IMG/VR virus record: IMGVR_UViG_2563367158_000002
From: a virus
Taxonomy: Duplodnaviria; Heunggongvirae; Uroviricota; Caudoviricetes
Reading direction: 5' to 3' (one strand)
DNA length: 35,353 nucleotides
This document shows, piece by piece, positions 3,592 to 31,022 of this stretch. The notes under the pieces are model-generated. The model was not told the DNA's origin. It did not search any database and was given only the letters and a program-made list of their open reading frames with translations. Each line of letters begins with the position of its first letter. The first letter of the stretch is position 1. Position numbers and translations under genes: made by a program.

Positions 3592-6039
3592 TTAACCGTC
3601 ATGCATCATGCTGGCACGGGCGCGCGCACGTTTATCCCGCTCGTATTTTTCGAGCGCATCCTGTAACTGGCGGTCAAGCTGTGTCCCCGGCGCAGTACCG
3701 CCCGTCAGGTTGATGTGATATTCGTTTTTACTCTGGTCCACATAAGAGCGACCAGCCGGTGCCGTGACCGGCTGATAAGCCTGATAGCCTGCATAAGAGC
3801 TGGTCGCCGGAATATAACCGCCGGTGCCATACGTGGCGGCATGAGTCCTTGCGGCGGTCTGGTCAAGTGTGTCTGACTCTTTGTTGATAACACCGAGTTT
3901 TTCCAGTACCCAGTCAATACCGCTGCGCAGTTTGTTGAACGCATTAAGCGGCAGCATCAGCGCGTCAGCCAGTGCCTGCCCGAACATGACGCCCGTGTCA
4001 CGGCAACGGTTCAGGGTGTCCTGGGTGGCTTTAACCGGGGCAATCAGGTTTTTAAACCACTGCCACGCGGCCTGTAACTTTTCACCCAGCCAGTCAAACA
4101 GCGGCTTAAGTGGCGTGAACAATTCCCCCACCGGCGCAAATGCCGCTTTCAGCCCTTCAACCACACCGCCAAAGAATGCGCTGACAGGCTCCCAGTATTT
4201 ACGGATAAGTAACGCTCCGGCGACAATGGCGGCCACCACGGCCACTACCGGCCAGCTAATCGCCCCGATGGCCGTCATAACGGCACTGCCAACCGTCGTG
4301 AAAATTGCCCCCATTGCGCCTGCTGCAGCGATGATGGCATTGATGCCGGTGATAACCGGCCAGGCTACAAGACCAATTGCACCGATGATGCCAGTAAGCG
4401 CCAGTGCGCCACCGGCAATGATGCCGATGGTTGACGCCAGTGATTTGTTTTTCTGGATCCAGCCGTCGAGTTTTAACACATACTTTGTGGCCGTCTGCGT
4501 GAGATTACGCAGTGCGCCTTCCTGCTGGTCAAACAGGTCTGTCCCCACCGCCTCATAAGCGGACTGAAACTCCTTAAAGTCACCTCCGAGATTGTCCTGC
4601 ATGATATTTACCAGCTCTGCAGTTTTCCCGTCTGAGGCTTTAAACGCAGCGGTCAGTTTGTCCAGCTTTCCGGTTGAGGCGGCAGTCATCAGCACGGCGG
4701 CGGCTGAACTTGCCTCCTCCCCGAAAATGGTTTTCATGTATTCAGCCTGCTGGGCAGTACCGAGCCGGTTTTTCTCAAAACTGGCCTGCATTTCTTTCAG
4801 AATGGTAAATACTGGTCGGGTGTTTCCCTTACTGTCTGAGGTTTTCACACCAAGCTCTTTGAGTGCATCCCATGCTTTTCCCGTCGGTGCCTGCAGGCGG
4901 CTTAACACGGCACGGCTTCCCGTCCCCGCCATTGAGCCTGTGATTTTTGCATCATGCAGCGCCCCGACCATTGCGGCGGTTTCTTCAATGCTGACACCGG
5001 CATTTTTTGCCACAGGTGCGGCATAGGTCAGCGCATCGCTCATGCCGTCAAAATCGGCGGCGGTTTTGTTCATCGTCATGGAGAGAACATCCCCGATATG
5101 AGCGACCTTATCGTTTGAAAGCTGAAAGGCAGATTTCATCCCCATCAGCAGGGCGGCGTTTTCTTCCATCGTGCGGCGGTTCGCCAGCGCCATATTCAGT
5201 GTAACCGGCGTTGCCGCCTGAATGGCATCAACATCCCCACCGGCTTTCGCAATGATAATCTGCGCACCGGCTGCATCATCTGCCGAGGCTGCGGTATTGT
5301 CGCCGAGCTGGCGCGCCTGTTTGCGTAATGCGGCCATTTCGGTGGAGTCTTTTGCCACTCCGAGCACAGCCTGTAATTCTGAGTTTTTCTGCGCAAACTC
5401 ATAACCGGGCATCAGCAGCTTAACTCCGGCCATCGTTCCCGCAGCAGCAATCCCCACACCGGCAGCGCCCACTGAGGCCATATTTCCGGCCAGTTCCTTT
5501 CCTGCCTGATAACGCTGTTTGACTGCGTTAAGTTTTGCCTGTTGTGCACTGACACGCGCCAGCGCGTCACGCTGACGGTTAAGCTGTGCGGTGGTTTCAC
5601 TGATACGGTTTTTCAGTCCCTGCTCATCATGTGCAAGATTGCGGGTATTAATTCCCACAACGGCCAGTTCCCGCTGCTGGCGTTTAACGGAATCCGTCAG
5701 GCGGTTATATTTCGCCTGTAAGTCCTCCGCCGCACGCTTTGCGGATTCCAGCACTTTCGCCTGAGCACGGGTCGGTCGTTCGGTATTTTTAAACTGTGTG
5801 GCAAGGGCTTCGGCTTCCTGCCGCGCCTTTTCAAGTGCATGACCAGTCACGGCGAGCTGTGCACTGGTCTTGCGGAACCCCTCAATACGGGATGCGTGAC
5901 CGTTCAGCTCGCGCAGTGATTTTTGTGTTTCCCGGATATCCCCCGACAGCGACTTGCTCGCTGTACGGATGGATTTAAACGGGCGGGATGCCTGGTCAAC
6001 AGCCCTGAGCAATACCTGTAATTTTACATTGTTACTCAT
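3592..6039 (-). CDS. T: Tail tape-measure protein T (815 aa)
   Basis: 815 aa as in P2 gpT; coiled-coil-rich N-terminal region and hydrophobic Gly/Ala-rich central segment typical of tape-measure proteins. Confidence 0.93.
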   Translation of the reverse strand: MSNNVKLQVLLRAVDQASRPFKSIRTASKSLSGDIRETQKSLRELNGHASRIEGFRKTSAQLAVTGHALEKARQEAEALATQFKNTERPTRAQAKVLESAKRAAEDLQAKYNRLTDSVKRQQRELAVVGINTRNLAHDEQGLKNRISETTAQLNRQRDALARVSAQQAKLNAVKQRYQAGKELAGNMASVGAAGVGIAAAGTMAGVKLLMPGYEFAQKNSELQAVLGVAKDSTEMAALRKQARQLGDNTAASADDAAGAQIIIAKAGGDVDAIQAATPVTLNMALANRRTMEENAALLMGMKSAFQLSNDKVAHIGDVLSMTMNKTAADFDGMSDALTYAAPVAKNAGVSIEETAAMVGALHDAKITGSMAGTGSRAVLSRLQAPTGKAWDALKELGVKTSDSKGNTRPVFTILKEMQASFEKNRLGTAQQAEYMKTIFGEEASSAAAVLMTAASTGKLDKLTAAFKASDGKTAELVNIMQDNLGGDFKEFQSAYEAVGTDLFDQQEGALRNLTQTATKYVLKLDGWIQKNKSLASTIGIIAGGALALTGIIGAIGLVAWPVITGINAIIAAAGAMGAIFTTVGSAVMTAIGAISWPVVAVVAAIVAGALLIRKYWEPVSAFFGGVVEGLKAAFAPVGELFTPLKPLFDWLGEKLQAAWQWFKNLIAPVKATQDTLNRCRDTGVMFGQALADALMLPLNAFNKLRSGIDWVLEKLGVINKESDTLDQTAARTHAATYGTGGYIPATSSYAGYQAYQPVTAPAGRSYVDQSKNEYHINLTGGTAPGTQLDRQLQDALEKYERDKRARARASMMHDG

Positions 6040-8361: not shown

Positions 8362-8551
8362 TGTCCTGATTTGTACTCACTCATTTTCCGACTGACTATT
8401 TAGATAGCCGAAACGCTATCAAATCTGACAGTCTGCTTTGAGCGAGAAGCGGAAGTCTCGGTCTTATTATGTTCTGAGACTAGAAGGTATTTCTTAAGGA
8501 TGATTATTCGTTACGCCTACATATAATAGAAACAGAAATTTAAAGTTTAAA

Positions 8552-8579
8552 TCTAGGTATCTGGCTAATGATACCTAGA
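8552..8579 (-). terminator. Perfect 10-bp inverted repeat hairpin (tctaggtatc / gatacctaga) downstream of the 455-aa cargo gene
   Basis: Perfect palindromic stem with 8-nt loop, followed on the minus strand by T-rich sequence, about 40 nt after the cargo gene stop. Confidence 0.5.
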
Positions 8580-8617
8580 TTGAATTTGAATCATATTTTG
8601 TTAGTTAACTTTAACTA

Positions 8618-9985
8618 TTATCTTTCTCCAACATCCTCTTCTAAAACATGATCTATCTTATCTACAGGAAGATTATCATACTTAGAAAAATCAAAACCAT
8701 CGGGAAGTTTATTTTTTGCTGCTTTTAATATTCTTATTGAATCGTTACCGTTTCTAGAGCGATTTCGCCAATAACATTGATTGTTTTTGTTTGCTCCTTC
8801 AAGCAGGGTTAACATTTGCTCGCTTGAGTAATTAGCCAAGTCTTTGTCAATAAATCTATCAAAATATATATCGGCTCGTTCGAAATCAGCGCTGTTTATA
8901 AAACAAGCAATTCCAAAATCGCGATACTCTGATTCCAAACCTAATTCGCTGCAAACATTTTTAAAAATTGCCAAATGTTGCTGGTTAAGAAAATTTCCAT
9001 TATCTCCGTATTTTTTGTAATATTTTTCAGATATTCTTTTTGTTACGCGATTAATGTGTTCCTCCGGCGATTCAGATATAAAAAAGGCTATTCCAAAATA
9101 AGATATGTTATCTTTTATAATAGGTTTTATGAGTTCTTTTACTGAATCATCCAAGGCGTTATATATTTCTTTCTCCATGGAAATGAACTCAATTAGTGCC
9201 TTAATTGCATCATGGTTATTGGAAATATTGGAGTAATAAGCAGTTTCTGCTTTAACCGAGTCCACCATGGCTTGCCTGTCTTTTTCAAATATCAGTTTCA
9301 TAGCTCTGATATTTATCTCTCTATTTTCTAATGGCTTAGCTTCTTCAGATCTAAACGAAAACTTCCACAACCCCTTGAATATCTTAACTAATACTTCCTT
9401 GTTTAAAGATTTGAAATATTTAACATCTAAGTATTTTTTAAGCGCGTTATCGGAAGGGAATAGGTCCTTTACCTTTTCTAGATCTGCAACAAATGTGGAA
9501 AGTATTTTTTGAGACATAAATGGCGGCTTGCTTAATATTACTTCTATACTATTCCTAATGTCACTTCTAATCATTTCCTGTGTTGGCTCGAATAACGTAT
9601 CTTCGTCACTTATTACTGGATGGGCAGATAAATGCCTGTGTTTTTGAATAAGTAAAACTTTATGGTTTGAAGCAGTGTCTAATAATTGAGTTCTTTCAAA
9701 AACTCTTTTAATAAGCTCTTTTTCCCATTTAGGAGAGTAAGGATCATCGTTTTGTAGTGCTTCAATTTCTAATAATATCTTTTCCGCAACAGCATCGTTA
9801 TGAACATCTCGCAGTTCTTGGAGCTTAAAAATAATATCACATACAACTACTGACCATAGCATCACGGTAGCAGAACGGTAACAACCATTAGCATAGCTCT
9901 TATAAACCTCTTCAAAATATTTTCTAGTTCTTCTATCATAAATTTTACTCTTCTGAGATTCTAATGAGAATATTCTAACGTCCAT
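8618..9985 (-). CDS. Cargo protein at the P2 Z/fun slot, 455 aa, with HEPN-like Rx4H motif (candidate abortive-infection or exclusion protein)
   Basis: Long ORF in an AT-rich island between G and FI; ATG with GGAG RBS; motif R117-H-L-S-A-H122 (plus strand 9620-9637) near the end of a roughly 130-aa helical N-terminal region; no Walker A motif. Whether it is a homolog of P2 Fun(Z) cannot be decided without alignment. Confidence 0.8.
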
Positions 9986-10282
9986 AATTTCTCCATGAAA
10001 AAATATTTAACTCAAGTAATTGAATATGAATCATGTAGTCATAAATACTTCAAAATTATATTTTTAGCCCACTTAAAATTCATACAAAACTTCTTTAATA
10101 AACTGATTCAGGTCTCATGCATTATGCTTTTAACAAACTATCCTAACCTTCATAGTATAAATCTTGATGTTCAATTTTACAATACGCCAAGTTTCCGTAA
10201 ATCAATGAATGCGTCGGATTTTACAATAATTTAAAAGAGATGTTGAATAGTATCCATGAAGTGTAAGGTTAATATACCCAAA

Positions 10283-10306
10283 ACGTCCGCCTCTGGCACA
10301 GAGCGG
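10283..10306 (-). terminator. Terminator-like hairpin downstream of G (gtccgcctctg / cagagcggac, then GTTTTGGG on minus strand)
   Basis: GC-rich stem with one bulge followed by a U-rich tract in the minus direction, about 65 nt after the G stop. Confidence 0.5.
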
Positions 10307-10369
10307 ACTGTCAAATTAGGCTTTACTCTGTGCCATAGATATGTAAGCTCCTACCAGAGCTCATACAAC

Positions 10370-10897
10370 TTATTGCGTCATTTCCGGCCATTCAGGATTT
10401 GTAGGATCCACACGACTGACCAGAACGCTGTAGCGTTCCCAAGCCTCCAGCCGTGTGCGCTCCTCCTCTGTTGCCATGTTCAGCCTGACAGCACGCTCTA
10501 GCGGCAAAATCACGGATTCAGCATCTGCAAGAAGTCTGGCTTTCCGGTTTTCTGCCTGCAGTTGCAATTCCTCTGCCGTATAAATTCGTTTGATCACTGT
10601 GCCATCCTTAAACATCCAGTTCCCTGAAATGTCCGCCCGTCGGTTAGCAGTAATATCCGCCACTTCAACAACACTTAATCCATCCGGTCTGATAGCTGTC
10701 ACATCCTTTTCCACATAGCGGATGATATTATCTTTGTCGTACGCTATTTTTATCGTGTCATCAGCAAAATACTTTTGTTCTTCGTACCAGTTCTTACCAT
10801 CTTCTGAAAAAAACCAGACAACATCAAAGTTCTTTGTCAATTGATATTGTTCAACCGTTTTTGGATTACCCGCCGTAATATTTTTTAAATGCTGCAT
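10370..10897 (-). CDS. G: Tail fiber assembly protein G (175 aa)
   Basis: P2 gpG length; MQHLKNI...[14 protein letters not shown] and C-terminal [11 protein letters not shown] recognised. Confidence 0.9.
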
Positions 10898-10900
10898 AAA

Positions 10901-13150
10901 TTATACCTGCGCCACGTTATACCATGTCCCGTTAATGTATTTCTGCACCGGTCTGTAATATACGCCACCAATGTTATCGGCAGAGTTTGAGCCGGTATCC
11001 TGAACAATAATGCCGGTATATACGCAACCTGACGGAGCCTGATGCGTCCATGTAGTACCATTATTTGCTGGTTTATATGTAGATGCACCGCCCAGTCGCA
11101 TGTCTCTCACATAACGTGAATCTGACTCAGCTTTGGTGTATGCACCAACATCTCCCGCTGAGGGTTTATGAGCAGTTGTATATAGTTGCGCCCATCCAGA
11201 CCAGTTAGCATCTGTGGTATCTCGTCGGGAGCGAATATATGCCGGAGCATGAGCACCGCTGGTTCCACTCCAGCCAATAAGTAACTCACCCTCTCCTACT
11301 GCGGTTACGCCAGTGAGATGAAGCACATTACCATAGGCTGTTGGGTAGCCATTGTTGTATGCCTCATACATCTGAATACCTGGTGTACCCTTTGAGCTCC
11401 CACCTAATGCAGTAACACGGTTTCTGGATACCAGTGTATTAATATTTATATCGGCAGAACCATCAAATCTGACACCATTAATATTTCTTGCGTTCGCTAA
11501 CTTCGTTGCTGTTGCAGCATTTCCTGAAAGGCTGGAAATAAATGGATGTGAGCAGTAATAACCGCGCCCATTTTTAAAATCCAGAATAGCCTGTGCGTTC
11601 GTGCTTTCTGTAGCGGGATTAGTTGCCCCCCACTTATATGTCGTTTGACCGACGACATAATCCTCTGTCGGAACAATAACCGTTAGCCCTTCCTCTGCAA
11701 GAATTTGCACAGGGAAAGCTCTGGCTTCAACATAAAAAACACTACATACATCATCATCTTTCAGGCTTGTAACAATGGAATGGATTGAACGCTCATTGGT
11801 CTGATACGTCCAGAAATAACCTGCCGCATATGAACCACGATCAGTCCATCCTCCGGGCATAACCATGCCATTAAACTCGCAGTTATTCATTACATAATCG
11901 CCGTTATAACAACCAGTGGAAATAACGACGCGGGATGCCATTTCTCCTGAAAGGCTGGCAGCACGGCGAAAGATAACGGGATACCACTTCCCGGCAACGA
12001 CATTTGCAGGGGCTGCAAACGAATACTTTCGCATTCCCTTTTTCTTATCCACTTCACCTTTGCTGTAAACATTAATGTTACTCAGGAAGCGTTCTTTATC
12101 AGGAATATCCGCACCGTTCTGATCTTTCTGAAGACGTTTTTCAGCATTGTCATTGGCAGACTTCACCGCTTTTGGTGTTGCGGCCAGCGTTTCAGAATCA
12201 CTGTTGGTGGCGCTACTTAGCTGGACAAGACCTTTTCGAGCTGTGGTGGCATCCTGTGCAGTGTATTTCCCGTTAGCAAGGTCATACGCTGTCTTAACCG
12301 CCTTTGGCGTTGCGGCCAGCGTTTCAGAATCGCTGTTGGTGGCACTACTGAGCTGAACAAGGCCTTTTCGCGCGGTGGTGGCGTCCTGCGCGGTGTATTT
12401 GCCATTAGCAAGGTCATATGCTGTCTTAACTGCCTTCGGCGTTGCTGCGAGCGTCTCAGATTCGCTGTTGATGGCACTACTTAGCTGAACAAGACCTTTT
12501 CGCCCCGTGCTGGCGTCCTGAGCGGTATATTTTCCGTTAGCAAGGTCATATGCGGCCTTTACCGCTTTCGGCGTTGCGGCCAGTGTTTCAGACGTGCTGT
12601 TGGTCGCACTGCTTAACTGAGTAAAACCTTTTGCGGTCAGCGAGGCGTCAGGGTGACGTCGTGACTGTTCGTGCTCTGCAATTTTGTCATCAACGTAATC
12701 CTGCGTCGCCATCACCGTTGTGGTGTCAATGGTCAGCTCCACTGAGGCCACACTGCTGACGATGATGACCATGCGGCAGGTCTGCGAACGCCCTGAGCCT
12801 TCGGCAAGAGCTGGCTTATAACTTTCGGCCATGTTCGCCACGGCAATTAACGTTCCCGCATCATCGTACAGGCCAAGCTCACGCATCCAGAAACCGCCCA
12901 CCTCCGGCGGAATAACCAGCTCTGCGATAATATAATTACTGTTTCGTTTGTCCTGACTGATTTTGTTCAGCGCATGTCGCCAGACTTCGTGGATAAGCCC
13001 GGTCTGTCCGGCATCCGGGACAGGCAATTTACCACCGCCATCCCCGACGGCCATCGTGGTAATGTTGACCTTCCGCCCTCCCGGTGCGGTTGCCGCTGCC
13101 AGCTTTGCTGCACCGGCAGTGGTGATAACGGTTTTGAATTTTGTGCTCAT
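10901..13150 (-). CDS. H: Tail fiber protein H (749 aa) with internal tandem repeats
   Basis: N-terminus MSTKFKTVITTAGAAKLAAAT... as in P2 H; about 80 aa longer than P2 H (669 aa as I recall) because of four 44-aa fiber repeats; Gly/Thr/Ser-rich receptor-binding C-terminus. Confidence 0.9.
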   Translation of the reverse strand: MSTKFKTVITTAGAAKLAAATAPGGRKVNITTMAVGDGGGKLPVPDAGQTGLIHEVWRHALNKISQDKRNSNYIIAELVIPPEVGGFWMRELGLYDDAGTLIAVANMAESYKPALAEGSGRSQTCRMVIIVSSVASVELTIDTTTVMATQDYVDDKIAEHEQSRRHPDASLTAKGFTQLSSATNSTSETLAATPKAVKAAYDLANGKYTAQDASTGRKGLVQLSSAINSESETLAATPKAVKTAYDLANGKYTAQDATTARKGLVQLSSATNSDSETLAATPKAVKTAYDLANGKYTAQDATTARKGLVQLSSATNSDSETLAATPKAVKSANDNAEKRLQKDQNGADIPDKERFLSNINVYSKGEVDKKKGMRKYSFAAPANVVAGKWYPVIFRRAASLSGEMASRVVISTGCYNGDYVMNNCEFNGMVMPGGWTDRGSYAAGYFWTYQTNERSIHSIVTSLKDDDVCSVFYVEARAFPVQILAEEGLTVIVPTEDYVVGQTTYKWGATNPATESTNAQAILDFKNGRGYYCSHPFISSLSGNAATATKLANARNINGVRFDGSADININTLVSRNRVTALGGSSKGTPGIQMYEAYNNGYPTAYGNVLHLTGVTAVGEGELLIGWSGTSGAHAPAYIRSRRDTTDANWSGWAQLYTTAHKPSAGDVGAYTKAESDSRYVRDMRLGGASTYKPANNGTTWTHQAPSGCVYTGIIVQDTGSNSADNIGGVYYRPVQKYINGTWYNVAQV
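12152..12646. repeat. About four tandem copies of a 132-bp (44-codon) repeat inside H
   Basis: Nucleotide repeats visible by eye; protein repeats ...RKGLVQLSSA(T/I)NS(D/E)SETLAATPKAVK(T/A)AYDLANGKYTAQDA... Confidence 0.85.
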
Positions 13151-14596: not shown

Positions 14597-14944
14597 TCAA
14601 CTCACAGGGATGGTTAACGAAAGTGGCTGGCCGGTGTCGTTGTGCTGGCCGGTTAACGTGACCGTCATTCGCCCGTCAAAACTGCGCTCAGTGGTGACGG
14701 ATGACAGGGTGACGCGGGGTTCCCATTTCAGCACCGCCATGTAACAGGCGACCTTAATCTGCAACTCAAGCGCCGGGGTCTGCGGCTGGTCAATCATTGA
14801 CGCCAGCAACGAGCCGTAATCACGACGCATCACCCGTGAGCCGACCGGTGTGCGCAGGATATCGCCGATACTCTGGCTGATATGCTCAAGGTCAGTGACA
14901 GTCAGGCTATCACTGCGATTCATTCCGAGATAACGCGCTGTCAT
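14597..14944 (-). CDS. W: Baseplate assembly protein W (115 aa)
   Basis: P2 gpW length and sequence. Confidence 0.93.
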   Translation of the reverse strand: MTARYLGMNRSDSLTVTDLEHISQSIGDILRTPVGSRVMRRDYGSLLASMIDQPQTPALELQIKVACYMAVLKWEPRVTLSSVTTERSFDGRMTVTLTGQHNDTGQPLSLTIPVS

Positions 14945-15570
14945 AGAGGACTCCCGGTTGTGCCGCCGCTGTCGCCGGGGTGTTTATGGGTATGCAGTAC
15001 CTTACCGTTTGATGAGAGTTCACCGCCGGTGTGTTCAATGTTGCCGTGCATCGTCCCGCCCTTCTGCACTTCCAGCGTGCCGGTAATCAGCCTGTTGGTG
15101 CAGACGACCTCCGGTGTGTCCAGGGTGATGCGGGTTGACGCTTTCACCATGACCACCGGCACCGTGGCAGTAACAGAATCAGAAGCCGTCACGCTGGCCG
15201 TTTTAATTCCGCTTACCGTGAGTGCACTGGTTTCGGGGTCATACTCAATCACCGCCCCGTCAGGGAAACGGATATGCAGGGCATCCGCCGACGCAGACGG
15301 CGCGGGGTTATCGCCGGAATAAATCCCCGGCAGAACGAACGCCGTGTCGAGTTCACCGCCCACGGACAGAATCAGCACCTGTTCCCCCACGGAAGGTGCC
15401 CACCATGTGCGCGAACGACCGGCGCGCTGGGTCAGCCACTGCAGCCAGTCGGTGCACATGCCGCCGGTCTGCACACGGCAGCGACCGGCATTAAGGTCGG
15501 TTTCGACGATAATGCCAGTGCGAATCATATTGCGTATAAAGCGAAGAATTTCATTGTATTGTGCATTCAT
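14941..15570 (-). CDS. V: Baseplate spike protein V (about 209 aa)
   Basis: Start at the internal ATG giving MNAQYNEILRFIRNMI...; the 235-aa ORF in the track begins at an upstream TTG; exact start uncertain. Confidence 0.88.
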   Translation of the reverse strand: MNAQYNEILRFIRNMIRTGIIVETDLNAGRCRVQTGGMCTDWLQWLTQRAGRSRTWWAPSVGEQVLILSVGGELDTAFVLPGIYSGDNPAPSASADALHIRFPDGAVIEYDPETSALTVSGIKTASVTASDSVTATVPVVMVKASTRITLDTPEVVCTNRLITGTLEVQKGGTMHGNIEHTGGELSSNGKVLHTHKHPGDSGGTTGSPL

Positions 15571-15656
15571 TCGATAATAATGATTCTGTACAATCTCGAA
15601 GTAAATCACACCACGATTTCTGGTGCACAGAACAACAAGGGACAACAAAATCCATT
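15571..15656. promoter_or_regulatory. Divergent control region: expected late promoter for V-W-J-I-H-G (minus) and promoter of the antisense cargo gene (plus)
   Basis: Position only; contains the dyad CACCA-N7-TGGTG (15609-15625) and a TACAAT-like hexamer (15588-15593). Confidence 0.35.
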
Positions 15657-16730
15657 ATGAGTACTTACTTTTTCTCGTCAGAAACAATGAAAGAATTGTT
15701 CAAAGATTATCTGGTCTTTTTGAACACGCTGACTCCCAGCACAAACTTTGAATCAAACAGAAACAAAATAATTGCTCAAGCAATAAACTTCATTTCCGAA
15801 AACCCTGAAGATTGGGACAAAAAATCCCAGTACAACATTGCTATGATTGGCGACACCTTTAAAAGTTTCTTAAGAGAAAAGGGGGAAGATAACAACAGCA
15901 TCAACCTTATATTCACTTGCTTTTTTAGATTTATCATTGAACCAAGCATTCTCTCTCCGGAAATAGAGTCTCACTTTTCACCACTAAGAACCATCAAGGA
16001 TTTTGCTCTGTATAACTATAATGAATTCGATGAGCGGAGCAGAGCACAGATAGACTTTTCTCTTAGAGAACTGCCATTAGCAATGGTTAAAGAAGTTTTA
16101 AGCTCCAGCAATGTTGACACATATAAAAAATACATTGATAGTTTAAACGAAGGGCGTCAATTTTTCGAAAAGTGCGACTCCTTCTTAAAGGAGCAACATG
16201 CCAAAATAGAGTCAATTAAAGAGTCATTAAAAGGGTATGAGGTCGCATTTAATTTTGTTGGATTGTTTGATGGCTTTAATTCACTTGGCAAAAAGAAAGA
16301 AAGTGAAATCATGCTATCAAGAATAATTCTTATCATCTTGGCTATAATCATTCCCTCCCCACTGATATACTATGGAATGCATAAATTACCAACTCTCGAA
16401 ACGACAAATGCTGCCACATATTTTATGTCAGCACTACCTTTTGCATCAGTTACATTGATTTTCATGTATTACTTTAGAGTTGTACTGATAAATCATATAT
16501 CGTTACGAACTCAGATTATGCAAATAGAACTCAGAAAGAGCCTTTGTCAGTTCATTCAGAGTTATAGCGACTATTCCTCAGAGATAAGGAAAAACAATCC
16601 GGAAGCGCTTTCAAAATTTGAAGACGTAGTATTTTCAAACATCATGCTATCCGATGATAAGATACCATCTACATTTGATGGTATTGAACAAATAGCATCG
16701 TTAATCAACGCATTGAAAAATGGCAAGTAA
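15657..16730 (+). CDS. Cargo protein at the P2 orf30 slot, 357 aa, membrane-anchored, unknown function
   Basis: AT-rich ORF on the strand opposite to the late operons; start at the ATG (15657) downstream of the V start, since the track's 389-aa version begins at a GTG overlapping V; two hydrophobic segments (IMLSRIILIILAIIIPSPLIYY and ATYFMSALPFASVTLIFMYYF) after a roughly 230-aa soluble N-terminal region; own terminator. Confidence 0.8.
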   Translation: MSTYFFSSETMKELFKDYLVFLNTLTPSTNFESNRNKIIAQAINFISENPEDWDKKSQYNIAMIGDTFKSFLREKGEDNNSINLIFTCFFRFIIEPSILSPEIESHFSPLRTIKDFALYNYNEFDERSRAQIDFSLRELPLAMVKEVLSSSNVDTYKKYIDSLNEGRQFFEKCDSFLKEQHAKIESIKESLKGYEVAFNFVGLFDGFNSLGKKKESEIMLSRIILIILAIIIPSPLIYYGMHKLPTLETTNAATYFMSALPFASVTLIFMYYFRVVLINHISLRTQIMQIELRKSLCQFIQSYSDYSSEIRKNNPEALSKFEDVVFSNIMLSDDKIPSTFDGIEQIASLINALKNGK

Positions 16731-16734
16731 TGAT

Positions 16735-16764
16735 AAAAGGCCAATAACTGGCCTTTTATTTATT
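16735..16764. terminator. Bidirectional rho-independent terminator (aaaa-GGCCA-ataac-TGGCC-ttttatttatt)
   Basis: Hairpin flanked by an A-run and a T-run; sits between the convergent cargo gene (plus) and S (minus). Confidence 0.7.
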
Positions 16765-16833
16765 AACGTAAAGATTCAAAATAAATCATACTAAATCAAA
16801 TAATTTCATTCTTATATTCTCAGATCAATAAAG

Positions 16834-17286
16834 CTAGCGATTCAGGTGAGCCAGAATAATCTCTTCAATCATCTGCACATCCTCACCGGTAAAGCCGAGC
16901 AGAGGACGCGCCGGATAATCAATTTTCTTACCGTCTTTCCGGGTTTCTTCCGACAGACCAAACTGATGCACACTGGCGATTTTCGGTGACTTCCCGCCGT
17001 AAAATTCCATTGCTGCCTGTTCCGGGCTGGCGCGGATATGCAAAAAACGACTGGTGATAAGTTTCGCAAACATTTTTCGCTTAACGCGACCGGTCTTTTT
17101 TCTGGCGCTCTGCTGCTGGCGTGGCGCGTAGGGTGTGCCGTCCGGGGCTTTCTGTGCCATCACCCGACGCTGCTGACTCTGCCGCAGACGTTTCGCCAGT
17201 TCGGCACTCAGTCGCCGACGCCCTGACGGTGACAGCGACTCAATCAGTCCGGTCAGCCGGTCTTCAAAACGCTTAAACTCATTCAT
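16834..17286 (-). CDS. S: Tail completion protein S (150 aa)
   Basis: P2 gpS length and sequence. Confidence 0.93.
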   Translation of the reverse strand: MNEFKRFEDRLTGLIESLSPSGRRRLSAELAKRLRQSQQRRVMAQKAPDGTPYAPRQQQSARKKTGRVKRKMFAKLITSRFLHIRASPEQAAMEFYGGKSPKIASVHQFGLSEETRKDGKKIDYPARPLLGFTGEDVQMIEEIILAHLNR

Positions 17287-26326: not shown

Positions 26327-27025
26327 TTACAACTTCGTCATTGCTGACTCAAATTCATCATTAAATGGCTTAATTTGAGATGATGTTAGTTTTTTTACGA
26401 ACTTTTTTGTTGTTGTTTGAACTACGATTCTACCTTCACCAAGAGCATTCCCCTGGCATTCTTTTACGAACCATTCTTGAGTTACTGATGTGGTAATACT
26501 CATTGGGATCACAAGCGTTAATATATCTCCGTAGTCTTCTAAAACATGCGGTAACTTGCCAGAGATAAGCGTCCTGGGGTTTACCAATATATTCATTGCT
26601 TTATTATTAGAAAATTGCAACACAACTGATTGAATATTACTCCTTACTTTTCTTTTGTTTGTTATGGTTATTGATATTGCTGTATCTGTAGTGCTAGGTA
26701 AGTACATTGATGGCATTAACACCATGCTATATCGAATAGCAATTTCTTCTGAATTTTCCTTTAGCGAACGGTGTGCTAACAACAATGATGTCGCAACAGC
26801 AGAAAATGCCCCCACCCCAGAAACCCAAGTACCCAACATGGTCAAAAAAGGTATTGTAATTAATTGGTATTTAGTGTCACCATTCAAACCAACACCACTA
26901 TAACCCACGTAACACCCTATAAAAAAGAATAGACAAGCCGTTATTAAAAAAAATAATAAATGCATAGAACTTATATTTTTAAATTTCAGCAACAAACCTC
27001 TTAAAATATATTTGCATCTCTTCAT
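26327..27025 (-). CDS. Cargo membrane protein B at the tin/old slot (232 aa, or 212 aa from an internal ATG), unknown function
   Basis: AT-rich ORF; basic N-terminus then two hydrophobic segments (LLFFLITACLFFFIGCYVGY and ITIPFLTMLGTWVSGVGAFSAVATSLLL) and a roughly 140-aa C-terminal domain; start uncertain (27025 or 26965). Confidence 0.7.
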   Translation of the reverse strand: MKRCKYILRGLLLKFKNISSMHLLFFLITACLFFFIGCYVGYSGVGLNGDTKYQLITIPFLTMLGTWVSGVGAFSAVATSLLLAHRSLKENSEEIAIRYSMVLMPSMYLPSTTDTAISITITNKRKVRSNIQSVVLQFSNNKAMNILVNPRTLISGKLPHVLEDYGDILTLVIPMSITTSVTQEWFVKECQGNALGEGRIVVQTTTKKFVKKLTSSQIKPFNDEFESAMTKL

Positions 27026-27123
27026 TTTCTAATCTCACATTAAAATCAGACACCAATTTTTGCTAGTCACTATTTTTATGATTGCCAGCATAAATGCTGG
27101 CATCTTTATCATTCTGGCACAGT

Positions 27124-27855
27124 TCACTCACTTATAATTGATACAACCTCACCTGTTTCTACATTGACACGCGCAGCAATCGTCTGTTTCACCACTCCGC
27201 CATAAGCATTAGTTCCGCGAAACGTGGTTTTCACAATGGCATGCGGGTCTTTATTCAAAATCAGATGATATACCGTTGACACATGTTTATAAGATGAATC
27301 ATCGTTCATATTATCTTTAATTAGTTTTTCCAATGGACGATAAGAACCATCCCAACCACTAAAATTACTCTGAAATGTATCAAGATTGATTTTATTGTTT
27401 AGTGACTTCGGGTCATTTTCATAATCATTAAAGCACCACCCAAGAACATCACCGAGTTTCAACTCATCATCTTTGGTAAATGTATACTCACTCATGCAGG
27501 CATAAAACGCATCTGACGCGGCGGCTGGAACTTCCTTAAAATCAATGTAACTATTCACAATATCGTGTCGTGTTTTCTTTGACTCGTTCCGATATTCCTT
27601 GAGTGTTTTTTCACCATATTCGAATGTTTTTTGGACTTTGTGTTCTGCAACGGTTGATGTTTCAGTTTTAGCAACTGGCTGGCTTTTTTCTGTTGGATAG
27701 AGTATTGAACCAATTATGCTCAATACAAAACCACCTCCGAGATAAACCGCACTTGCACGTTTGCGGTTTGGCATTCGCACCAGTGATGGCCTGATTAACC
27801 CGATGAAGAAAGCAACGAAAAAAGCGAGTGATAGAAAAGCGATTATAGTATCCAT
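27124..27855 (-). CDS. Cargo membrane protein A at the tin/old slot (243 aa), unknown function
   Basis: Start at the ATG with AGGA RBS (aaaaaggatagctATG); two hydrophobic segments (IIAFLSLAFFVAFFIGLI and AVYLGGGFVLSIIGSILY) separated by an RKR loop, then a roughly 180-aa soluble domain; AT-rich. Confidence 0.75.
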   Translation of the reverse strand: MDTIIAFLSLAFFVAFFIGLIRPSLVRMPNRKRASAVYLGGGFVLSIIGSILYPTEKSQPVAKTETSTVAEHKVQKTFEYGEKTLKEYRNESKKTRHDIVNSYIDFKEVPAAASDAFYACMSEYTFTKDDELKLGDVLGWCFNDYENDPKSLNNKINLDTFQSNFSGWDGSYRPLEKLIKDNMNDDSSYKHVSTVYHLILNKDPHAIVKTTFRGTNAYGGVVKQTIAARVNVETGEVVSIISE

Positions 27856-28078
27856 AGCTATCCTTTTTGCATCATCCACATAAAAAATCGACCTCATGTT
27901 AGCAACAGGATGCTTACTTTTGAATATTTGTAAGTTGTTAGCTCTCCAACCTAACTCTTTTCAACCGTCAAAAACCAGCACCAACGCAGTAAAAATATGT
28001 CTGTCAACTAACGCCTCGCTTCGCTCGTTGTTCAACCCCGCCAGCCCTGAAAACAAGTTTCACGACTGGCGGCGTTCT

Positions 28079-28285
28079 CTATCGTCTGCGTGGTGGTGGC
28101 GCAACTCTGGACTGACCGATATCGTTAAACCGTCTGTAATTATCCCGGACTATTTCGGCACACCCGACCAACTCGTCAGGCGTCAGATTTTCGTTGAGCA
28201 TAATCTGCTGTAGACGGTGAACAATGGCCATCAGTTTGATATTTTTAGTTTTATGGTGCGGTATCTCGCCTGGTATTCTGTGCAT
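28079..28285 (-). CDS. Small basic protein (68 aa), translationally coupled to the upstream ASCH-like gene
   Basis: Its ATG overlaps the stop of the preceding gene (TAATG); MHRIPGEIPHHKTKNIKLMAIVHRLQQIM...APPPRRR; no recognisable family; may be non-coding. Confidence 0.4.
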   Translation of the reverse strand: MHRIPGEIPHHKTKNIKLMAIVHRLQQIMLNENLTPDELVGCAEIVRDNYRRFNDIGQSRVAPPPRRR

Positions 28286-28740
28286 TATCCAAGCCACCCA
28301 TTTTGCTTTGCACGCTCCACCTGTTCATCTGAATAGTTCCATATCCCATCCGTAGCAACCACTGCCCCGCCAGACATCCCCGTCTCTGGTTCATACATAA
28401 CAGCAAGGCCGAGCTGATGCATAATTTCATGATTAATTCTGAATACCAGACCACGTTCACTAAGTTCTTTCCAGTTCACAATCTTATATGCGCCCGTATT
28501 AAGCAGCTCAATACTTAGCAAGACATAATCTTCCAGCCAGTCTGACAGGTCAGTAACATCTGTTATCCGGGCTTCAACCTTTCGCCCCGTAAACACACCC
28601 TGCACCCATTCATGCAAAATCAGCGTGTCCCCGCGCTCATAATTACGGTCATTTTTCCGAAACTCTGCGCGTTTCTTTCCTTCCAGCACAAGGTCAAAAT
28701 ATTTGGCGTGCAGCTTTACCTCGTGAATTTTTGCCATCAT
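28285..28740 (-). CDS. ASCH/PUA-like (DUF3850-type) domain protein with C-terminal HExxH motif (about 151 aa)
   Basis: N-terminal pattern IHEVKLHAKYFDLVLEGKKRAEFRKNDRNYERGDTLILHEW resembles ASCH/DUF3850 from memory; C-terminal HEIMH (plus strand 28417-28431); its ATG overlaps the A stop (ATGA), suggesting co-translation in the early operon. Confidence 0.7.
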   Translation of the reverse strand: MMAKIHEVKLHAKYFDLVLEGKKRAEFRKNDRNYERGDTLILHEWVQGVFTGRKVEARITDVTDLSDWLEDYVLLSIELLNTGAYKIVNWKELSERGLVFRINHEIMHQLGLAVMYEPETGMSGGAVVATDGIWNYSDEQVERAKQNGWLG

Positions 28741-31022
28741 TTCCACTCCATTACTATTGAGAATCCCGGCCACTCATCAGCGACCGGATACGTGAATTTT
28801 TTCCCGTCGTAATTTACGGTCGCGCCACGCGCCAGCGCCTCAAGCTCCCATCGCTGCGGCCTGATACCGTTCTGAGCGAGATCAACGCGGATACGGGTGA
28901 TTTGCAATCGTTCAGACCGGGTCAGTCTGGCCGATGGTGCAATTTCATGTGGTTTTAACGGGCTTCCGTTTCTTTGCTGACGATTTGGTGTTCTCAGGTC
29001 GTGTTTTAATGCCCCCCTGAGCGCCCTCACGACCTCCGTGTCGTTCCATTCGATAACACCGTCATCAACCAGATTAAGCACTGCTGCGGCGTGTTCAGAA
29101 GGTGTGGGAGCCGGTAACGAAGTATCACCACCGGTGAGCTTTCCACAGTTATTGACAGGACTCCGAGGCGCGGCGATGCCGCTTTTTAAAGTCAAAGGCT
29201 CAACGACCGGCACTTTCGGAACAATGCGCCAGTCCGTCGTTCTGGTGATATGAATATGACGCGCGCCGAGATGCGGCGCGTAAATGCCGACCACTCTCTC
29301 GACTTCTTCCTCGTACTCGTTAACTTCATCCGACGGACTACGGGCGACCCTGACAGTCTGACAATCGCGCGGGACATTTGCCCCACCCTGCGCGCTGATA
29401 TACAGCGCAAAATCACCACTGTCTGCGGCGGCGCGTGCAGCCTCGACGCGCTCGTCAAACTCATCAGCAATGCTGACGCCGCGAGGCAATTTGCGTAGTT
29501 CACGGTAAGCCCCCATTGTCGGCAGGCCAACCGTTTTAAATTGCGGAATGCGCCACGTTGACGCCCATGCGGTAACAGCCGCGGCAGTATCTTTCAGCGG
29601 TCTGCCGGTATCGTTATCGAGCTGCCCATCCAGTGCATAGCCGTCGATATTTTTTGAGATGTATTTCGCGATATACCCCGCAGCACCGCCCCGATTAAGA
29701 TGTTTTGCCTGAAAACGGTTTCGCGCAGCTCCTCTTTCGTCGCCATCCTCTTTGAGCGCGTAGCGACGCATGATTTCGATAATCTGGTTACGCTGGCGTG
29801 GATTACAAAAAAGCATCATATGCCAGTGCGGCGTTCCGTCGTGGTGTGGCTCGACGACTCGCAAACCGTAGACCTGTAAATTATTATCCTTGAATGCCGT
29901 GCGCATCAGGCTCCAGATACGGCAGAGATAACGCTGCGCATCCTTTGGATTAAATGCCTCATCGTTCCAGCCGTGATTTAGCTGGACGGTTTTACTTTCG
30001 CCTTTTCCAACCTGACGTGTCGGGTGATACTTTGACGGCGCGGTCAGCGTGATAAACATCCCCACATCACCTTCTGCGGCGGCGTAACGCTCAATACCGG
30101 CAATGGTGTTCATCAGCTCCATCCGGCGAATTTCAGGATTAGAAATACTGCCCATCACCTTACTGATAAGGTCGATGCGCTCGCCTGTTTCCCTGTTTTC
30201 GAGATCACACGATTTTAGAAATTCCAGATTTGCCTGGCGGCGTGCACGCACATCACGAATGGCATGTTTACTGGCATAAGGAGAACGGTCTTTATTGACC
30301 TCCCCGACAGCAATCAGTAACGCCTCATGCCAGCGCATACGCTGGCCTTTAAGCTGACTAATCCACCACTCATCGTTAAACAGACGGGCAATGGCAGAAT
30401 ATGCCTGCCTCGTGGTCATCTGTCCTTTACGGTATTTTTTCCAGTAGAGAGGGGAAATATTGAAAGCACGTGCAGCGCCAGCAACATGACCATAGAGGTG
30501 AGCCTGCGCCTCATCCGTAAACAGCGATTCTTTTTCGCCATGCGCATCCACCCAGGCATCGCTGAGTTCCTCATACATCATGAAAAGCTGCGATGAGATA
30601 CGGGCGGCAAACTTTTTCAGCTCCTTGTCATTCATTCCCGGCAGGCGCGCATAGTGGTCACGCTCAGCCAGAAACAGCATCGACGCGTCGGTGTTCATTT
30701 CATGGCGCTGATTCACACGCTCAATGCGCGGCCATAAACGACGCTGAAAAGTGGATGTGAGGAAATAAAACCCGTGCACCGGGCTTTTATTGCGCCGGAT
30801 GTAGTCATAGCGTGACGTAAACAGCGAGCGCAAAAAGTAAGGCAGGCGGTTAATCGTGGATAAAACACCTTGCACCTGACGCATCTCGTCACGTGTAAGG
30901 GGTCTTTCGCGCCCGACAGCCTCGCGTGGCGCGTTCCATGCATAAGCACCGGTAAACGCCTTACCGGTGCCTGCAGCAAATGCTGACGGAGGGACAAAAT
31001 GCCCGGAGGCTTTAACGGCCAT
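28737..31022 (-). CDS. A: Replication initiation protein A (rolling-circle nickase, 761 aa)
   Basis: Start at the first ATG (MAVKASGHFVPPSAFAAG...) giving the P2 gpA length; the track ORF begins at an upstream TTG. Confidence 0.93.
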   Translation of the reverse strand: MAVKASGHFVPPSAFAAGTGKAFTGAYAWNAPREAVGRERPLTRDEMRQVQGVLSTINRLPYFLRSLFTSRYDYIRRNKSPVHGFYFLTSTFQRRLWPRIERVNQRHEMNTDASMLFLAERDHYARLPGMNDKELKKFAARISSQLFMMYEELSDAWVDAHGEKESLFTDEAQAHLYGHVAGAARAFNISPLYWKKYRKGQMTTRQAYSAIARLFNDEWWISQLKGQRMRWHEALLIAVGEVNKDRSPYASKHAIRDVRARRQANLEFLKSCDLENRETGERIDLISKVMGSISNPEIRRMELMNTIAGIERYAAAEGDVGMFITLTAPSKYHPTRQVGKGESKTVQLNHGWNDEAFNPKDAQRYLCRIWSLMRTAFKDNNLQVYGLRVVEPHHDGTPHWHMMLFCNPRQRNQIIEIMRRYALKEDGDERGAARNRFQAKHLNRGGAAGYIAKYISKNIDGYALDGQLDNDTGRPLKDTAAAVTAWASTWRIPQFKTVGLPTMGAYRELRKLPRGVSIADEFDERVEAARAAADSGDFALYISAQGGANVPRDCQTVRVARSPSDEVNEYEEEVERVVGIYAPHLGARHIHITRTTDWRIVPKVPVVEPLTLKSGIAAPRSPVNNCGKLTGGDTSLPAPTPSEHAAAVLNLVDDGVIEWNDTEVVRALRGALKHDLRTPNRQQRNGSPLKPHEIAPSARLTRSERLQITRIRVDLAQNGIRPQRWELEALARGATVNYDGKKFTYPVADEWPGFSIVMEWK

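Follow-up and report, generated by a model that had tools for sequence, protein, structure and literature searches.

An antisense cassette in the S/V slot of P2-like prophages encodes a predicted inner-membrane protein with a possible anti-phage role

What is the role of the AT-rich gene that a P2-like E. coli prophage carries between its late genes S and V, antisense to both? The gene is situated in a viral record of 35,353 nt (IMGVR_UViG_2563367158_000002), the whole of which is referred to below as the window. The late genes of this prophage are on the minus strand of the window, and in the queried 1.4 kb it is 99.7% identical to a prophage integrated between pflB and pflA in strain LR-45. 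A preliminary description of the window had presented the gene as a cargo of the orf30 slot encoding a membrane-anchored protein, and had suggested a membrane-acting exclusion or abortive-infection effector. The slot and the presence of antisense cargo in it are already known, and the family of the cargo, phrog_9373, is catalogued in PHROG as “hypothetical protein” and is uncharacterized. A literature search by accessions, by the PHROG identifier and by sequence motifs, including the DefensePredictor supplements, yielded no mention of it.

The cargo gene and its cassette

The S/V stretch has a GC content of 0.34–0.38, compared to approximately 0.57 around it, and contains one long open reading frame, on the plus strand. 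It is flanked on the left by the gene of the baseplate spike gpV, the first gene of the V operon (positions 14941..15570, minus strand), and on the right by the gene of the tail completion protein gpS, the last gene of the O operon (16834..17286, minus strand). The longest frame spans positions 15561–16730 and yields 389 aa from a GTG codon; translation from the ATG at 15657 yields 357 aa. The latter start, given in the preliminary description, is confirmed by alignments with homologs, which begin at this ATG and in which F6 is invariant, and by the RefSeq annotation of LR-45, where an identical CDS of 1074 nt is present. The cargo gene thus occupies positions 15657..16730 on the plus strand, and its product is a predicted membrane-anchored protein of 357 aa. 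As the probability of a 389-codon open frame at 35% GC, calculated arithmetically from base composition, is approximately 3e-13, and as 348 homologs of the 357-aa protein are found in databases, we consider the ORF to be a real gene. Its GC content is 0.349, compared to 0.552 in the flanks (35% vs. 55%), which, together with its plus-strand orientation against the minus-strand flanks, bears out the initial observation of an AT-rich antisense gene between the S and V operons. In comparison with the 76%-identical E. albertii-type allele, dN/dS over the whole gene is 0.24. The gene is located within the late region, approximately 1 kb from the lysis genes.

The boundaries of the exchanged segment were determined via comparison with L091, an E. 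coli P2-like prophage with an empty slot, in which S and V are separated by a 66-bp spacer with a GC-rich hairpin. Homology to L091 stops at approximately 15534, within the first 12 codons of V, and restarts at approximately 16821. The segment between these breakpoints, 15535..16821, is therefore a swapped cassette that brings, besides the cargo ORF, its own V N-terminus (the first ~12 codons) and pV region as well as the terminator and an AT-rich spacer. The dS value between two alleles is 0.60 for the cargo vs. 0.078 for the adjacent gene S, so the cassette has been exchanged independently of the phage backbone. By these sequence comparisons, the cargo is a horizontally acquired, self-contained accessory (“moron”) cassette that replaces the S–V spacer, in agreement with its initial interpretation as an antisense cargo of the orf30 slot with a terminator of its own.

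Between the convergent cargo gene and S, at 16735..16764, we observe a hairpin with T-runs on both strands, resembling a bidirectional intrinsic terminator. The hairpin itself, AAAAGGCCA-ATAAC-TGGCCTTTT, is located at 16735–16757, just downstream of the cargo stop codon; its folding energy is –16.2 kcal/mol on the plus strand (z = –5.5) and –14.3 kcal/mol on the minus strand (z = –4.7). These energies and the T-rich tails on both strands agree with the bidirectional terminator reported earlier at this place; a simple consensus terminator scanner did not flag the 16735–16757 hairpin. Other cargo alleles (L094, L088, and L001) have a different hairpin at the same place, and in the empty slot a GC-rich hairpin is found in its stead.

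On the other side of the cargo, the intergenic region between V and the cargo gene (15571..15656, minus strand) matches, by its position, the annotated activator site and the V transcription start of P2. It probably comprises an Ogr-dependent pV promoter and a facing promoter of the cargo. By eye, TGT-N12-ACA sites can be seen at the corresponding position of L007 and L040; the exact TGT-N12-ACA sequence, that is, the canonical Ogr site, is absent from the spacer between V and the cargo. No sigma-70 promoter with at least 9 of 12 matches was found upstream of the cargo on the plus strand.

The S/V junction used as a query was matched in 1572 of 5426 complete E. coli genomes, and the cargo is present in 60 of these 1572 (3.8%). 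In an evenly spaced sample of 60 E. coli records, approximately 36 slots are empty, approximately 16 contain an orf30-type antisense ORF of 786 bp, and three contain the phrog_9373 cargo, so that at least three states of the slot exist in E. coli. In the annotation of P2 the order is S, the terminator of the O operon, antisense orf30, the pV activator site, and V. The orf30 slot is one of three classical variable, horizontally acquired regions of P2-like phages (PMC3091744), and the other two, old/tin and Z/fun, are defense hotspots (PMC9122126). The Z/fun slot of the studied prophage carries PD-T7-3.

The P2 protein Orf30 resembles the cargo in several respects: its gene likewise lies between the terminator of the O operon and the activator site of pV, in the same slot and antisense to the late genes, and is an AT-rich cargo encoding a predicted membrane protein. 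Orf30 has 261 aa and three hydrophobic segments, whereas the 357-aa cargo has a C-terminal hairpin of two transmembrane (TM) segments. Kinship of the two proteins, a comparison suggested in the preliminary description, is rejected: the best BLASTP match to Orf30 (AAD03281.1) has E = 1.3 over 16 residues, and the proteins are unrelated. As the function of Orf30 is also unknown, the comparison yields no mechanism.

Predicted architecture and conservation of the protein

Kyte–Doolittle profiles with 19-residue windows have two peaks, 2.40 at aa 218–236 and 1.84 at aa 260–278, consistent with the TM helices predicted initially, and both hydrophobic segments are predicted throughout the family. A weaker hydrophobic stretch, aa 81–99, contains R91 and the invariant E95. 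The structural model places it in the core of the N-terminal domain, as a helix rather than a membrane segment. Clusters of positively charged residues flank both TM segments, KKK at positions 211–213 before TM1, and R274, R284, R293, and K294 after TM2; hence, both termini are predicted to be cytoplasmic, with approximately 12 residues in the periplasm. Thus, the cargo product is predicted to be anchored in the inner membrane, its two ends lying on the cytoplasmic side.

The AlphaFold2 model, built from an alignment of 74 sequences, is all-alpha, with mean pLDDT 83 and pTM 0.50 for the full chain. It comprises a compact N-domain (aa 1–150, pLDDT above 90), a single 80-residue helix (aa 152–231) that starts in the cytoplasm and enters the membrane, a return helix (aa 252–310), and two short C-terminal helices of low confidence; residues 330–343 are also modeled with low confidence. 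The most conserved motif sits in a low-confidence part of the model. Modeled on its own, the N-domain has pLDDT 93 and pTM 0.89.

Four parts of the protein can be distinguished, all encoded on the plus strand. The first is the all-alpha, cytoplasmic N-terminal domain (aa 1–150; positions 15657..16106), which is fast-evolving and may be involved in sensing or partner binding. It is followed by a helical stalk (aa 151–195), a coiled coil in the family architecture, and a juxtamembrane motif AFNFVGLxxGFxxLGxxK (aa 196–218), delimited by the AlphaFold2 model and column identity (16107..16310). The third part, assigned by hydropathy, is the TM hairpin, with TM1 at aa 219–241, a 12-residue outer loop, and TM2 at aa 254–280 (16311..16496). 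The last one is a conserved cytoplasmic C-terminal module, delimited by column identity and composed of the QIELRKSLCxFIQSY helix, the KFE..FSNIM segment, and the invariant PSTFDG (16497..16727). The soluble N-terminal region and two TM segments had been described correctly, whereas the C-terminal tail, initially called short, is 77 aa long and better conserved than any other part of the protein.

Conservation differs widely between these parts. The mean column identity is 0.43 in the N-domain and 0.39 in the stalk, rises to 0.67 in the juxtamembrane motif AFNFVGLxxGF, and equals 0.46 in TM1, 0.23 in the outer loop (the lowest of all regions), 0.63 in TM2, 0.78 in the post-TM2 helix QIELRKSLCxFIQSY, and 0.68 in the C-terminal tail (KFE..FSNIM...PSTFDG). 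Invariant residues are N199, F200, G206, F207, and K214 in the juxtamembrane region, and P261, Y271, and F273 in TM2, with R274 almost invariant. The dN/dS ratio is 0.37 in the N-domain vs. 0.12 in the C-module; the N-domain value, being below 1, does not demonstrate positive selection. As conservation is lowest in the outer loop, the activity of the protein probably faces the cytoplasm or the membrane rather than the periplasm.

The hairpin topology invites comparison with class II holins and pinholins, which have two TM segments and both ends in the cytoplasm. The same topology is predicted for the cargo, and, taken together with the location of the gene in the late region near the lysis genes, it could indicate an accessory to the lytic cycle of the phage itself, acting in lysis timing, in membrane docking of assembly, or to some other benefit of the phage. 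We consider this very unlikely, as the gene is antisense to all late operons and separated from them by a terminator, the slot contains no gene in most P2-like prophages of E. coli, and most family members are found outside phages. Moreover, the cargo is approximately three times larger than these holins and has a cytoplasmic region of approximately 215 aa ahead of the hairpin. Holins were expected to have approximately 70–150 aa and to be encoded in a lysis cassette, co-transcribed with an endolysin; a holin or lysis role of the 357-aa protein, encoded on the opposite strand and outside the holin–lysozyme–LysB/C block, was rejected.

Database searches placed the protein in a single family. 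The match to the phrog_9373 profile covers the full length (aa 13–356 against profile positions 7–387 of 388; E = 3e-134, 449 bits), so the cargo is a member; as the family is not annotated, the membership shows only that other phages carry the gene. No other match, and hence no high identity to a characterized protein with a non-defense function, was observed, in line with the initial expectation; the function of phrog_9373 is unknown. Among 5027 defense-protein HMMs of PADLOC-DB v2.0.0, none matched the cargo at E ≤ 1, while PD-T7-3 from the same window, serving as a positive control, was matched with E = 3e-168. The Pfam scan at E ≤ 1 yielded three matches, all of them sub-threshold noise (e.g., DUF3810 with 0.029 and Mlp with 0.067); the Pfam scan of 74 family members found no recurrent family, and the NCBIfam scan of the 357-aa protein, no match. 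The SLATT_1–5 and DUF4231 models, which are in Pfam-A, are absent both from the three Pfam matches of the protein and from the 25 commonest families of the 74 members. The sequence-profile search against PDB yielded no match, and neither did the Foldseek comparison of the model with PDB at E ≤ 1e-3. Generic coiled-coil hairpins (IpaB, tektins) retrieved by the full-length fold search were rejected as uninformative. With the tools used, neither part of the protein is assignable to a known fold family.

Membrane location suggests comparison with superinfection exclusion as well, in which the protein, residing in the inner membrane of the lysogen, would block entry of phage genomes without killing the cell, similarly to P22 SieA, T4 Imm, and HK97 gp15. 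These are inner-membrane proteins of temperate phages, as predicted for the cargo, and are expressed from the prophage. Two facts are compatible with exclusion: temperate phages of two lineages carry the cargo, and P2 Orf30, which can fill the slot instead, is likewise encoded antisense and predicted to lie in a membrane. Still, we rate this possibility as improbable: the sole periplasm-facing part is the tiny and variable outer loop, while the bulk of the protein and its conserved mass are cytoplasmic, and many copies are chromosomal. Moreover, there is no sequence match to SieA, Imm, or gp15, and no Pfam match at E ≤ 1 to Imm, SieB, and similar superinfection-exclusion families. The Imm and SieB models are included in Pfam.

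Distribution and gene neighborhood of the family

The S/V slot of other phages and prophages is occupied by homologs with 36–51% identity, in the same antisense orientation. These include Yersinia phages vB_YenM_31.17 and 06.16-2 (36–39% identity), Citrobacter prophages, and the E. albertii-type allele, whose slot also contains an IS200-type Y1 transposase gene adjoining the cargo. In the Erwinia, Pectobacterium, and Symbiopectobacterium loci the gene adjoins gpV homologs encoded on the opposite strand, and in four of them it is flanked by gpS homologs. In Enterobacter ludwigii, an intact gene is retained beside a 61-aa remnant of gpS amid chromosomal genes.

A distant branch, with 26–32% identity over the C-terminal 50–68%, retains the same architecture. 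Members of this branch are found in 224 Klebsiella plasmid records of approximately 110 kb, almost all of them predicted to be non-mobilizable, and in Klebsiella phage-plasmid records of a phage collection. In pJN2-26, an annotated example, the homolog stands alone, on the strand opposite to its neighbors.

A scan of one genome per species yielded 113 confirmed loci in Gamma- and Betaproteobacteria, Campylobacterota, relatives of Geobacter and Desulfobacter, Nitrospirales, and Bacteroidota. Many copies of the family are chromosomal and distant from any phage. The profile of the C-module retrieves 823 clusters at 50% identity, 763 of them below 1e-10, and in the full-length entries among the top 150 an N-terminal part of approximately 185–235 aa is followed by the C-module at the C-terminus; some entries are shorter and seem to be truncated. 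Given these clusters and the C-terminal position of the module, the family is sharply bounded and has one architecture.

Across 78 loci from a wide range of phyla, the cargo is more AT-rich than its flanks in 77, the median difference being –0.14. The immediate neighbors are mainly housekeeping, such as the his operon, two-component systems, and ABC transporters. In seven Pasteurellaceae loci, across genera, the gene is inserted in the his operon between hisB and hisH, and in Halobeggiatoa, Marithrix, and Thioploca, which are sulfur bacteria, it immediately follows an msbA-like ABC transporter gene. A minority of neighbors are phage V and S genes, integrases, IS200 transposases, and defense-like genes, GmrSD and SspE being among the latter. 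Among 147 immediate neighbors, the raw counts of matches to defense models are two each for HEC-06, SspE, and PDC-M55C, one for dGTPase, and others.

The lasting retention in such non-mobile contexts, together with the preponderance of housekeeping neighbors and retention of the gene after prophage decay in Enterobacter ludwigii, speaks for a membrane protein that contributes to host fitness or lysogenic conversion irrespective of phages, e.g., to envelope homeostasis or stress tolerance. On the other hand, the AT-rich, foreign signature and the patchy occurrence in E. coli, as well as the swapping of the cassette and the fast evolution of the N-domain, are more typical of conflict genes, and no pathway link was found. 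On balance, a contribution of this kind seems rather unlikely, although it is a serious candidate.

A conserved partner gene was sought across 80 loci and not found, the best neighbor cluster being present in nine of the 80. This bears on one more explanation, a selfish addiction or toxin element that stabilizes the cassette or the prophage without benefit to the host. A single, horizontally mobile gene of a membrane protein would fit it, as would the IS200-type Y1 transposase genes found next to the E. albertii-type allele and near the Pasteurellaceae homologs. However, the absence of an antitoxin partner or any conserved neighbor speaks against such an element. Moreover, purifying selection over large distances and the uniform 350-aa architecture are unlike those of type I toxin–antitoxin membrane toxins, which are shorter than 60 aa. 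Of all the explanations, we give this one the least credence.

Possible role of the cargo

A defense role, either abortive infection or exclusion, is plausible from the context and the architecture. More specifically, our leading, still tentative suggestion, to which we would give somewhat less than an even chance, is a prophage-expressed protein directed against other phages, most likely a one-protein sensor–effector abortive-infection (Abi) system. We infer the anti-phage reading from the mobile cassette, the protein architecture, published data on the variable regions and hotspots, and the presence of PD-T7-3 in the Z/fun slot. The protein made from the prophage would shield the lysogen from other phages: the variable N-domain would recognize a cytoplasmic cue of the infecting phage, whereupon the conserved module of juxtamembrane, TM, and C-terminal parts might oligomerize or rearrange, and the inner membrane would be compromised, so that the infection is aborted.

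Several observations favor defense. The slot has siblings that are defense hotspots, the cassette is mobile, the same slot is occupied in distant phages, and the module consists of a single gene. Moreover, the gene is retained beside the gpS remnant and in the his operon, the N- and C-terminal parts contrast in conservation, and some neighbors are defense genes. With single-protein or membrane-effector Abi systems of the P2/P4 hotspots (e.g., P2 Tin, Old, and Fun; PD-T7-3; TM effectors of CBASS, retrons, and DRT) the cargo shares its place in a variable prophage slot, AT-richness, patchy distribution, and the combination of a variable, putatively sensing part with a conserved membrane part. 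Unlike these systems, to which it has no homology, it lacks both a partner gene and a domain with an enzymatic or nucleotide-binding function. Against defense, there is no homology to a validated defense protein and no solved or annotated relative, no promoter of the cargo was identified, and the immediate neighbors are mostly housekeeping. The N-domain dN/dS below 1 and the low full-chain pTM of the model also count against it. A housekeeping or envelope role would account just as well for the stable vertical retention in operons of Pasteurellaceae, Halobeggiatoa, Marithrix, and Thioploca.

With still more reserve, one may extend the anti-phage reading to the family as a whole, which could be an unrecognized, widespread single-protein immune system, where the sensing domain and the PSTFDG effector module would both differ from known folds and defense domains. 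Its range would then span Gamma- and Betaproteobacteria, Campylobacterota, Desulfobacterota, Nitrospirota, and Bacteroidota, as well as P2-like phages and Klebsiella phage-plasmids.

Defense genes have already been mined in the old/tin and Z/fun regions, and our literature search found no separate analysis of the S/V (orf30) slot, both alternative membrane-protein cargos of which are without known function. The family is easily tested, being represented by one gene of approximately 1.1 kb with its own terminator and occurring in several phyla and in two lineages of temperate phages; it offers a clean and inexpensive target for experiments, though one among many such candidates. Should the cargo prove not to be defensive, it would demonstrate that a defense role should not be taken for granted in the cargo of phage hotspots. 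If it is a defense gene, it would represent a new membrane-acting immune family and provide a functional label for the third variable slot of P2.

Borders and alternative occupants of the S/V slot

The left recombination border of the cargo cassette falls within gene V, and the cargo therefore moves together with an AT-rich V N-terminus of its own (about 12 codons, window 15535–15570, reading MNAQYNEILRFI...) and likewise with its own version of the pV promoter region, in the V–cargo intergenic stretch at 15571–15656. No exact TGT-N12-ACA site for Ogr is found in this stretch of the window; such a site is present at the corresponding position in the related loci L007 and L040. The classical occupant of the slot, P2 Orf30 (positions 640–1425 of the P2 locus L084), has three strong hydrophobic segments with Kyte–Doolittle values of 2.3–2.6, and thus both alternative cargos of the slot are antisense predicted membrane proteins, although the sequences of Orf30 and the 357-aa cargo are unrelated.

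Cargo of the Z/fun and old/tin slots

In this prophage, the Z/fun slot, located between the tail fibre assembly gene G and the sheath gene FI and coinciding with an AT-rich block (8500–10500), carries a gene for a 455-aa protein (8618–9985, minus strand). This protein has no Pfam domain and is matched over its full length by PADLOC to the validated defence gene PD-T7-3 (E = 3e-168). The tail fibre gene H (10901–13150, minus strand) contains tandem repeats; its translation shows several near-identical copies of a segment of approximately 34 aa (…TAQDATTARKGLVQLSSATNSDSETLAATPKAVK…).

The old/tin slot lies between genes Q (portal) and A (replication) and includes an AT-rich block at 26500–28000. 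It is occupied by a tandem pair of minus-strand ORFs (26327–27025 and 27124–27897; 232 and 257 aa), with one transmembrane segment predicted near the N-terminus of the 232-aa product and two near that of the 257-aa product; neither has a match in PADLOC or Pfam. These two genes form a cargo of predicted membrane proteins, as yet uncharacterised, at what is the main defence hotspot of P2. In the near-identical prophage of E. coli LR-45, the slot is filled instead by a reverse transcriptase and an AAA ATPase. A 162-aa ORF adjoining the slot (28285–28773, minus strand) matches the Pfam families ASCH/DUF3850 (E = 1e-17) and DUF7415 (E = 8e-14).

Cargo homologues in other genomic contexts

In the S/V slot of the E. 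albertii type (L094/L095), the gene immediately downstream of the cargo (4157–4591) encodes an IS200-type Y1 transposase; a gene of this type is also located within approximately 2 kb of the his-operon homologue in the Pasteurellaceae loci L064, L071, L073, L075, L079, and L083. This proximity could reflect a link to mobilization, or could be coincidental.

A distant family member is found in Klebsiella phage-plasmids of roughly 110 kb (224 plasmid records), between the primase and ligase modules and on the strand opposite to its neighbours (L002, 4572–5738); it is represented by several alleles, whose N-terminal parts are no longer alignable to the query. In Enterobacter ludwigii, an intact homologue (L087, 1124–2376; also L086) adjoins a 61-aa gpS remnant amid chromosomal chemoreceptor and sucrose-utilization genes, an arrangement recurring in many assemblies (84 index blocks). 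Here, the cargo is retained after decay of the prophage.
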